Positions 44,752 to 45,835 of a stretch of 64,000 nt of DNA are shown here, one piece after another (positions within the stretch are counted from its first letter, which is position 1; each line of letters begins with the position of its first letter). The stretch is from the NCBI RefSeq assembly GCF_003334355.1, contig NZ_QOWP01000002.1. One strand, written 5' to 3'. The notes under the pieces are model-generated. The model made no database searches, had not been told where the DNA came from, and was given only the letters and a program-made list of their open reading frames with translations. The position numbers were made by a program, and so were the translations under genes. This stretch comes from Escherichia coli. GTDB lineage: Bacteria; Pseudomonadota; Gammaproteobacteria; Enterobacterales; Enterobacteriaceae.

Positions 44752-44931
44752 ATGGCGAAAAAACCAGGTGAAAACACAGGGAAAAACGGCGGAATATACC
44801 AAGAAGTTGGCCCACGCGGCGGTAAGAAAGACAATTTTGCCACCGTCAAGGACAACGAAAGGCTTCCACCAACAACAAAGCCAGGTCATGGCTGGGTATT
44901 GGATAAGCGAACTCCAGACAGCAAAAAGTAA
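44752..44931 (+). CDS. Small hypothetical protein (possibly YjzC-like)
   Basis: 59 aa from ATG 44752 preceded by GAGG; Gly/Lys-rich (MAKKPGENTGKNGGIYQEVGPRGGKK...); the family assignment is an uncertain recollection. Confidence 0.4.
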   Translation: MAKKPGENTGKNGGIYQEVGPRGGKKDNFATVKDNERLPPTTKPGHGWVLDKRTPDSKK

Positions 44932-44944
44932 TAATCAAGCCGGG

Positions 44945-45310
44945 TCACTCCGGCTTTTTGATATGTCGCTCGCAGAACTCAACAAGCCTGCTCATTAAGT
45001 AGCAGTAAGTCTCGTTGGCTCTTCCTGGTTCAACATCAACACCTACCCTTGAGCAGATATCGAATGCCATGTGAGCGCACTCATGGGCAATAGTAGATAG
45101 TTTGCCATTGAACACGCCTATCACATGCAAAACACCATTCTCGCTACTCATTGTATGAGACGCTCCGTTGGCGTCCGAGTCATGCACGTCAACGCCAAGT
45201 TTTTGATGCAGGCGTTGCCATTCTGGAAAGTCTCTACAAAACACAATTGTACCGCTCTCAAAGAGCGGAACGAGCATCTTTGGTACGTTTCCAATGTTAA
45301 CTTTTTTCAT
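44945..45310 (-). CDS. Small HExxH-motif protein, putative zinc metallopeptidase (ImmA/IrrE-like?)
   Basis: 121-aa ORF with HECAH (HExxH) followed by NETYCY; co-oriented with the late operon; AT-rich accessory gene. Confidence 0.5.
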
Positions 45311-45340
45311 GGTATCCTGCGTAAAACTAAGGAGGTTGGT

Positions 45341-45835
45341 GTGTCTGATTCTATGAGTTACGCTGTGCTAGTTGCCGCAACTCTATTTCTGGGGATAGGG
45401 TTGCAGATTGCGTGGTTCTTTTTTTCTAGTTTTATTAAACGTAAAAGAATTGAATCAAGGATATCTGAGATTTCTATTGCTATAGGGAAAAATGCTGAAA
45501 ATCCAGAGAATGAGGCCTGCGCACTGAATTACCTTAAAGAAAAGTTTTCCCCTGAAAAATTTGAAAACAGAATTACTGATGCTCTTGGATTGGTAATATC
45601 AGTAATTCATATGCCACTAAGTTTGCTGATAACAGTGTGGTACTTCGCCATGATCGCCGGAAGAATATTTGGTTTCATGAATATAGAGCCTGTAGTTCTT
45701 TGGGTTCCAATGATACTGCAATTGTTGTTAAGCGTTGCTATCTTTATTTTTTCTGTTTTTATAAAAATTGTCTTCGGAAGATACCCCGGAGAAGCGAAGG
45801 GATTTAATAAAGAATTCATAAAAACTATAAAATAA
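45341..45835 (+). CDS. Small integral membrane protein (about 3 TM helices), candidate superinfection-exclusion protein
   Basis: RBS AAGGAGG at 45328-45334 then GTG 45341 (ATG at 45353); the ORF track start at 45125 overlaps the divergent gene and is unlikely; three hydrophobic segments; AT-rich; sits at the sieA-equivalent position. Confidence 0.5.

Follow-up and report, generated by a model that had tools for sequence, protein, structure and literature searches.

The question raised by this locus is what three small genes are doing in a P22-like prophage of Escherichia coli, where they lie between the last ejection-protein gene and mnt and where a reading made from the sequence alone had proposed an undescribed phage-exclusion or defence module. 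We analyzed a stretch of 64,000 nucleotides of contig NZ_QOWP01000002.1 (assembly GCF_003334355.1), referred to here as the window, and sequence comparison identifies the three genes as P22's own named block, sieA-hkcC-orf59a, i.e., one that is already known and is not an undescribed defence system. The three open reading frames (ORFs) are located where this sequence-only reading had placed them, and encode proteins of 59, 121 and 164 amino acids that contain the HECAH and NETYCY motifs and the hydrophobic stretches it had described. The features on which our analysis relies, with their coordinates in the window, are as follows.

42328-44265, - strand: tailspike gene.
44401-44652, + strand: mnt, encoding an Arc/Mnt-family repressor, 75% identical to P22 Mnt at the amino acid level and matching Arc-like PHROGs.
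44687-44715, + strand: promoter-like site of orf59a, sigma-70 type (TTGACT, 17-nucleotide spacer, AATATT), found in a consensus scan.
44752-44931, + strand: orf59a (HK620 'HkcD'), encoding a basic protein of 59 amino acids, probably of the YjzC family, 98% identical to P22 (PHROG 3202, E=7e-31).
44937-44956, both strands: hairpin terminator common to orf59a and hkcC, found in a terminator scan (-12.6 kcal/mol).
44945-45310, - strand: hkcC, encoding a predicted soluble zincin-like protein of 121 amino acids, 99% identical to P22 and HK620 (PHROG 1365, E=2e-39).
45256-45340, + strand: expected sieA promoter and ribosome-binding site (AAGGAGG) region, by homology to P22.
45341-45835, + strand: sieA, encoding a type-A superinfection exclusion inner-membrane protein of 164 amino acids, 93% identical to P22 (PHROG 7745, E=7e-109).
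45858-47732, - strand: gene 16 homologue, encoding a DNA-transfer/ejection protein, 77% identical to P22 gp16 (PHROG 770, E=7e-276).
45858-49126, - strand: gene 16 and gene 20 homologues together.

A megablast search against phage genomes aligned P22 with window positions 44554-45900 at 96.4% nucleotide identity, and this segment spans the 3′ half of mnt, orf59a, the 121-amino-acid ORF, sieA and the end of gene 16. At the protein level the identity to P22 is 93% for SieA, 99% for HkcC and 98% for Orf59a, and an E. coli RefSeq genome contains the same block at 98.8% nucleotide identity. The view that these genes stand in place of P22's sieA is wrong: they are the sieA, hkcC and orf59a of P22 itself, all three of which are listed for P22 in the literature, with hkcC given as function unknown (Villafane 2008). 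The region is very probably the right-hand part of the P22 'ant moron' and a set of three cargo genes that act independently of one another; all of them had names in P22 and HK620 before. Both arc and ant are missing from this prophage, so mnt abuts the tailspike gene. Genes 16 and 20 are encoded on the same strand as hkcC, with sieA, orf59a and mnt on the opposite strand, and the division into lysogen-expressed and late-expressed genes drawn earlier from these strands was correct. The compositional contrast drawn at the same time, that all three genes are AT-rich, holds for sieA (35.6% GC) but not for hkcC (46.2%) or orf59a (47.8%), which have the same composition as the structural genes (47.6% for gene 16 and 49.3% for gene 20; 49.7% for the whole window). 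A search of PADLOC-DB v2 gave no matches at E<=1 for any of the three block proteins, and an Rfam scan of window positions 41000-49000 returned nothing relevant.

The membrane protein is, as judged by alignment, a type-A SieA and a straightforward orthologue of P22 SieA: 152 of 164 residues are identical (93%, E=3e-114), PHROG 7745 'SieA-like' aligns over residues 1-164 of 164, and the SieA-family motif FxRYPxEAxxFNK, as defined in PMC10883804, is present at residues 145-157. Kyte-Doolittle analysis showed hydrophobic stretches at residues 5-32 and 78-150, the second of which is long enough for two helices, and a near-identical allele has these segments split as 5-29, 78-106 and 112-130, a pattern consistent with an integral membrane protein that lacks a signal peptide and has the three transmembrane helices that had been read at this superinfection-exclusion position. 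The gene is found in the interval from gene 16 to the tailspike gene and runs opposite to the late operon; the E. coli RefSeq copy is named 'superinfection exclusion protein A', and viral contigs in IMG/VR (L018 and others) contain SieA alleles 99% identical to that of the window. Compared with P22 SieA (Hofer 1995; Leavitt 2024), the window protein is alike in length, hydrophobic segments, motif, position and upstream promoter/ribosome-binding region, and differs by 12 substitutions and by the absence of adjacent arc and ant genes. P22 SieA, a protein of the inner membrane with three predicted transmembrane helices, is both necessary and sufficient for exclusion (Leavitt et al. 2024, PMC10883804); it stops only P22-like phages from injecting their DNA, and mutations that escape it map to the C-terminal parts of the ejection proteins gp16 and gp20 (PMC10883804). 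By homology, the window SieA would reside in the inner membrane of the lysogen and, through interference with the gp16/gp20 ejection-protein conduit, keep superinfecting P22-like phages from injecting their DNA, and it should need no partner to do so.

The hkcC ATG (45310, - strand) and the sieA GTG (45341) diverge with exactly 30 bp between them, just as had been read, and this arrangement had led to the claim that the promoters of the two genes must lie inside each other's coding sequence. For sieA this claim stands. The P22 gene functions in exclusion with no more than 85 bp of its upstream DNA (PMC10883804), and this stretch corresponds to window positions 45256-45340, which cover the first 18 codons of hkcC; the PsieA of the P22 annotation maps to 45280-45310. 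The sieA promoter is therefore expected within 45256-45340, inside the 5′ end of hkcC, and would be a weak one; a consensus scan found no strong promoter site upstream of sieA. For hkcC the claim lacks support, as the same simple scan of the - strand revealed no promoter-like site. A longer in-frame ORF of 236 amino acids (45125-45835, + strand, with its ATG at 45125) extends sieA upstream across 186 nucleotides of hkcC, and this longer form is annotated as SieA in some records (e.g., UAB_Phi20); of the two forms, it is that of 164 amino acids, with the AAGGAGG ribosome-binding site, that agrees with P22 genetics.

These findings bear directly on the proposal that the membrane protein, the HExxH protein and the small ORF make up an undescribed exclusion or defence module. 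The three genes are neighbours at a hot spot already known for exclusion, and the orientation of two of them would allow expression in the lysogen. However, the membrane protein is SieA itself, and a SieA orthologue at this place is part of what the sequence-only reading had named as reducing its proposal to known exclusion cargo. P22 SieA alone, with its 85 bp of upstream DNA, excludes phage (PMC10883804); hkcC is found with at least 12 other cargo genes instead of sieA, and in HK620 without sieA; PADLOC gave no match, as described above; and folds of the HkcC type occur in phages outside the temperate P22/lambdoid groups. We consider the proposal highly improbable on these grounds.

The other cargo genes were identified by a survey of IMG/VR for P22-like loci encoding an HkcC 98-100% identical to that of the window (n = 80), a sample that serves to describe the cargo slot and not the diversity of the family. 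At a 40% identity threshold, the genes that diverge from hkcC in these loci form 12 clusters, and type-A sieA is found in only 11 of the 80. Most of the proteins encoded in the slot are small and contain a transmembrane helix, a signal peptide or a lipobox. For example, in loci L013-L092, at the position equivalent to window 45341-45857, a 178-amino-acid lipoprotein-like protein is present in 18 loci and a 129-amino-acid secreted protein in 12, and further slot genes encode several proteins of 62-149 amino acids with a single or double transmembrane segment. Every slot gene with an unambiguous start (n = 75) begins 30 nucleotides from the hkcC ATG and has the same promoter and ribosome-binding site. 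Among complete E. coli genomes, the block is partly present in 310 of 5,426, and at least 80% of it in only 6, with a seventh at 79.9%; among the partial E. coli matches listed, homology ends at approximately 45343, i.e., at the sieA start codon. This demonstrates that hkcC is a constant flank that carries the promoter for a swappable cargo gene. The scarcity of type-A sieA in the surveyed loci, and the end of homology in E. coli at the start codon of sieA, confirm that sieA does not form a functional pair with hkcC. A membrane-protease pair of SieA and HkcC was likewise considered as a candidate and ruled out, as the two do not co-occur, SieA is sufficient alone and HK620 has hkcC without sieA.

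The junction of gene 16 and hkcC is a site of cassette exchange, at which at least 12 unrelated small genes for membrane proteins, lipoproteins or secreted proteins, sieA among them, replace one another, and as such is convenient for mining new exclusion proteins. Exclusion determinants of phages BTP1 (the RNA STnc6030) and HK97 (gp15) are alike in being lysogen-expressed cargo that blocks entry of related phages and is located beside DNA-delivery genes; they differ in being unrelated molecules, and they are evidence for a hot spot at this slot and not for anything new in the window. HK97 gp15, which figures in the introduction of PMC10883804, is an exclusion protein encoded next to the tape-measure gene. 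In BTP1, an exclusion antisense RNA, STnc6030, is located between the injection and tailspike genes (PMC7067206).

With sieA accounted for, the locus leaves two conserved, selected genes of well-studied P22 that are still uncharacterised. The 121-amino-acid window protein is 99% identical to the product of the same frame in P22 and to HkcC of HK620 (the P22 'hkcC' of Clark 2001 and Villafane 2008; PHROG 1365), with the same position, orientation and terminator overlap and essentially no difference. The curated P22 record BK000583 and record AB362338 both leave hkcC unannotated, BK000583 placing the sieA promoter and an 'mnt terminator' on top of it, and many other records list a hypothetical protein. 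The missing annotation might suggest a chance frame antisense to the sieA promoter region, but the data that follow show hkcC to be a genuine gene on which strong purifying selection acts. The 40 distinct alleles in the loci we retrieved have 29 synonymous against 7 non-synonymous segregating changes, a ratio of non-synonymous to synonymous polymorphism (pN/pS) of 0.06; an AGGA ribosome-binding site is present 5 nucleotides upstream of the ATG; and a profile search of 1.84 billion representative proteins identified 546 relatives (cluster representatives) at E<=1e-3, nearly all of them stand-alone proteins of 105-140 amino acids. Homologues extend to Pseudomonas phage phCDa (Schitoviridae), at 32% identity. 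An alignment of 116 relatives (23-74% identity) has just four columns without variation, H76, E77, H80 and E100, i.e., the HExxH...E residues, with HECAH occupying residues 76-80 and NETYCY residues 99-104 of the window protein. Together with the confident fold prediction described below, this leaves the chance-frame explanation with practically no probability.

The AlphaFold2 model of HkcC (mean predicted local distance difference test (pLDDT) 89, predicted template modelling score (pTM) 0.83) has a beta-beta-alpha-beta-beta-alpha(HExxH)-alpha(E) topology with four strands, in which HECAH is located inside a predicted helix at residues 71-88 and E100 starts a second predicted helix at residues 100-116. 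This glutamate, invariant in the 116 relatives, is 20 residues after H80, and an HExxH followed by a Glu at this distance would correspond to the arrangement of a gluzincin metal site. Foldseek searches of AFDB50 and BFVD gave, beyond the HkcC family itself, proteins labelled IrrE/ImmA, SprT-like, DUF4157, phage metallopeptidase and Lys-specific metallo-endopeptidase, and matches of the predicted structure to small zincin-like domains had TM-scores of 0.6-0.75. The invariant residues, the predicted fold and these labels bear out the gluzincin-type signature that had been read from the motif. Profile matches in the PDB are marginal (best E=0.024); 9 of the 12 are zinc metallopeptidases, and in these the alignment is centred at the HExxH helix. 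The window protein has no match to Pfam SprT-like PF10263 at E<=10, and among the 116 relatives there is 1 at E<=0.001 and 13 at E<=0.1; for Peptidase M78 (ImmA/IrrE), Pfam gave no match for HkcC or its relatives. Because sequence links to curated families are absent or marginal, we class HkcC, from its sequence and its model, as a putative orphan zincin-like family, filed under neither SprT nor M78. In its predicted structure, HkcC appears to resemble SprT-like PF10263, ImmA/IrrE M78, DUF4157 and PhageMetallopep PF18894 in having an HExxH in the central helix and a four-stranded sheet followed by two helices, and it differs from these small zincin families in having no significant Pfam match and an apparent third ligand, the Glu 20 residues past the motif, that is gluzincin-like. 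HkcC would thus be a small cytoplasmic zincin-like protein in which H76, H80 and E100 bind zinc and E77 acts as the catalytic base.

When such a protein would be made is suggested by its genomic context. From gene 16 to the tailspike gene, the late strand has no sense ORF other than hkcC, and in most of the contexts we examined the relatives of hkcC point the same way as the lytic-cycle genes around them. For example, paralogues at 36-40% identity occupy, in the late direction, the interval from the lysis genes to the small terminase gene, as ST64T orf-129 and mEp021 gp49 (with L Orf129 and epsilon34 gp70 as their counterparts among the listed matches), and a metagenomic phage has a relative in the same position. 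HkcC fold relatives are present in many phages outside the temperate P22/lambdoid groups, phCDa among the phages with a family member. Because hkcC is the only sense ORF on the late transcript from gene 16 to the tailspike gene, we infer that it is expressed during lytic growth; its orientation with the late genes, and the fold relatives outside the temperate P22/lambdoid groups, make a lytic-cycle function more likely than defence of the lysogen. The reading we favour is that HkcC is a late-expressed zinc protease, which would cleave a specific protein substrate during the lytic cycle and play no part in lysogen defence.

Longer members of the family (173-194 amino acids; P0063, P0067, P0116, P0133, P0150 and mEp021_49, at L011 2477-3061) carry a C-terminal extension that is Lys/Glu-rich and of low complexity in the five inspected, mostly with a short basic end such as ...YKRG, ...FKRW or ...VRRG, and P0063 and mEp021_49 are encoded directly upstream of the small terminase gene. 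These features hint at a nucleic-acid association or a packaging-related role for the longer members.

One version of a lytic role is that HkcC is a counter-defence or host-takeover protease that cleaves a host protein (e.g., a defence factor), with Orf59a an unrelated neighbour. The invariance of the catalytic-type residues is in keeping with this, as are the co-orientation with lytic/late genes (including the paralogues between the lysis and small terminase genes of ST64T/L/epsilon34, mEp021 and the metagenomic phage), the fold relatives in many phages outside the temperate P22/lambdoid groups, and the 98-100% amino acid identity of HkcC across P22-like prophages with widely differing gp16 proteins and tailspikes. 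However, there is no characterised homologue or substrate, and our literature search found no experimental work; the basic, low-complexity C-terminal tails of the longer members would fit a DNA-associated (SprT-like) role as well. We regard this specific version as possible, if on the unlikely side.

The proximity of mnt, approximately 300 bp away in P22-like phages, raises a different substrate, with HkcC as an anti-repressor protease of the ImmA/IrrE type that cleaves an Mnt/Arc-family repressor and so switches the immI circuit. This is very unlikely in view of the lack of any Peptidase_M78 Pfam match noted above and of the contexts in which the gene is found: the cassette formed by hkcC and orf59a occurs in tail-gene and replication-gene slots without an adjacent mnt or repressor gene, HK620 keeps hkcC with only remnants of mnt and ant, and the window has mnt but no ant to de-repress.

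The third gene, orf59a, encodes a protein of 59 amino acids with 9 Gly and 10 Lys residues and a net charge of +6. In its own frame the non-synonymous rate (dN) is 0.12-0.39 and the synonymous rate (dS) is saturated, with ratios greater than 1 in 4 of 5 control frames; orf59a is a real gene under purifying selection. The small ORF had been described as YjzC-like, and this is supported by a weak match of the window protein to Pfam YjzC PF14168 (independent E=0.0018, residues 4-49) and by its relatives. Distant relatives carry a precomputed PF14168 annotation, UniRef names close relatives 'YjzC family protein', and a homologue in a Clostridium phage is annotated as YjzC family; the protein is 98% identical to P22 Orf59a (the HK620 'HkcD'), and its own family match is marginal compared with the clearer matches of its relatives. 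In a model of Orf59a fused to HkcC, it forms a small three-stranded beta sheet (pLDDT 78-87 at residues 12-54). The -35/-10 block listed above is kept upstream of orf59a homologues in siphovirus prophages of Klebsiella and Rosenbergiella. We propose that orf59a is a self-contained unit of promoter, gene and terminator, encoding a basic mini-protein that is probably made in the lysogen.

The terminator ties orf59a to hkcC. The stop codons of orf59a (44931) and hkcC (44945-44947) bracket or overlap the hairpin at 44937-44956, which the terminator scan picks up on either strand and which encodes the end of HkcC (KKPE and the stop). In P22 it is annotated as the 'mnt terminator', in HK620 as the 'bidirectional terminator tORF59A'. 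The C-terminus of HkcC (I/M-K-K-P-E and the stop; window 44945-44959) is kept in distant homologues (L097, L099, L006). This conservation is probably the imprint on the protein end of an RNA constraint, since the codons concerned, read on the other strand, form the stem and T-tract of the orf59a terminator.

The same convergent pair is found in unrelated prophages. It occurs between the tail tube and tape-measure genes in siphovirus prophages of Klebsiella oxytoca and Rosenbergiella, directly after the major tail protein genes in siphovirus prophages of Xenorhabdus and Proteus, after replication genes in one Pasteurellaceae prophage, in a second Pasteurellaceae genome, and in Morganella-type P22-like prophages and metagenome contigs. 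A scan of one genome per species with strict peptide patterns, which is not suited to statistics, gave 11 loci and added Xenorhabdus, Proteus and a further Pasteurellaceae lineage. Across the cassette loci, identity falls to 43% for HkcC and 61% for Orf59a, in three genome slots, with the hairpin between the genes kept. Among the 80 P22-like hkcC loci, 67 contain a full orf59a and 11 keep hkcC (>=98% identical) without it; there is also a clade of HkcC relatives, the orf129 clade, without orf59a, and YjzC-like genes are found alone in other Proteobacteria and in Firmicute phages. We conclude that hkcC and orf59a are interlocked by a common terminator and form a two-gene cassette that recurs in unrelated prophages independently of sieA, and that this coupling is not absolute. 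A type II toxin-antitoxin pair was considered and ruled out, since the genes are convergent, with a common terminator and separate control, orf59a having its own promoter.

The recurrence of the cassette raises the question of whether the two proteins work together, i.e., whether a late protease and a small lysogen protein that is its substrate, inhibitor or regulator form a small lysogeny-to-lysis switch. In such a model, late transcription would shut off Orf59a by antisense read-through and HkcC would cleave Orf59a, removing a lysogen function that hinders lytic growth. The convergent arrangement is kept over 43-63% identity in HkcC and 61-93% in Orf59a, in at least eight lineages and three slots; in every case one of the two genes runs with the late operon and the other against it; the promoter of orf59a is its own and is conserved; and a full orf59a accompanies hkcC in most of the P22-like loci. 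However, the common terminator, lying within the last codons of hkcC, could be reason enough for their joint movement, and the 11 P22-like loci that keep hkcC without orf59a, the orf129 clade and the solitary YjzC-like genes also argue against a functional pair. A linker-fused AlphaFold2 model of HkcC and Orf59a had a pTM of 0.54, compared with 0.83 for HkcC alone, with a disordered linker and no confident docking, which is a weak negative as the alignment contained only 9 pairs. We judge the functional pair, and in equal measure the switch model built on it, to be unlikely.

The favoured reading of the locus is then that of three genes acting independently, with SieA as the excluder and HkcC as a late-expressed zinc protease, and several points weigh against it. 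The 12 of 164 residues at which the window SieA differs from that of P22 could give it a different target range; the HkcC sequence has no significant match in Pfam, NCBIfam, PADLOC or the PDB; late expression of hkcC is read from its orientation and from the absence of a promoter in a simple consensus scan; and the expression timing of hkcC and orf59a, and catalysis by HkcC, are things that we infer.

What the present analysis adds to the named P22 block is the zincin signature of HkcC, the selection data and the structure of the cassette. Our literature searches found no functional work on hkcC or on characterised small phage SprT-like proteases. The HExxH...E active site, the predicted late expression and the conserved partner gene provide a testable handle on hkcC, and, small zincins of the HkcC type being widespread in phages, a function found in P22 would carry over widely. 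If the switch model were true, it would provide the first function for two conserved P22 genes and for the YjzC family, in a cassette that moves between prophages of the podovirus and siphovirus types in Enterobacterales and Pasteurellaceae.

The C-terminal half of Mnt is P22-like and the N-terminal half has diverged, with a nucleotide identity to P22 of approximately 96% from about position 44554 on. Residue 6 of the window Mnt is Gln, compared with His in P22 (GRDDPQFN vs ARDDPHFN), and a perfect palindrome, AGACCAC-A-GTGGTCT, is located at 44322-44338 between the tailspike start and mnt, where the Mnt operator of P22 is GGTCCAC-C-GTGGACC. This looks like a repressor-operator pair that has co-varied to an altered specificity, and, with arc and ant absent, Mnt would control a promoter reading straight into the tailspike gene. 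The prophage adjoins a tRNA-Arg(CCT) and contains an integrase gene at 39976-41169. Between the integrase and the tailspike gene, an apparently broken O-acetyltransferase gene (PHROG 3333) with 33% GC is present at 41217-42287 (+ strand); its 260-amino-acid ORF covers positions 111-366 of the 372 in the profile, with the N-terminal part in a separate 57-amino-acid ORF (41217-41390), and it is probably a pseudogenised O-antigen acetylase.

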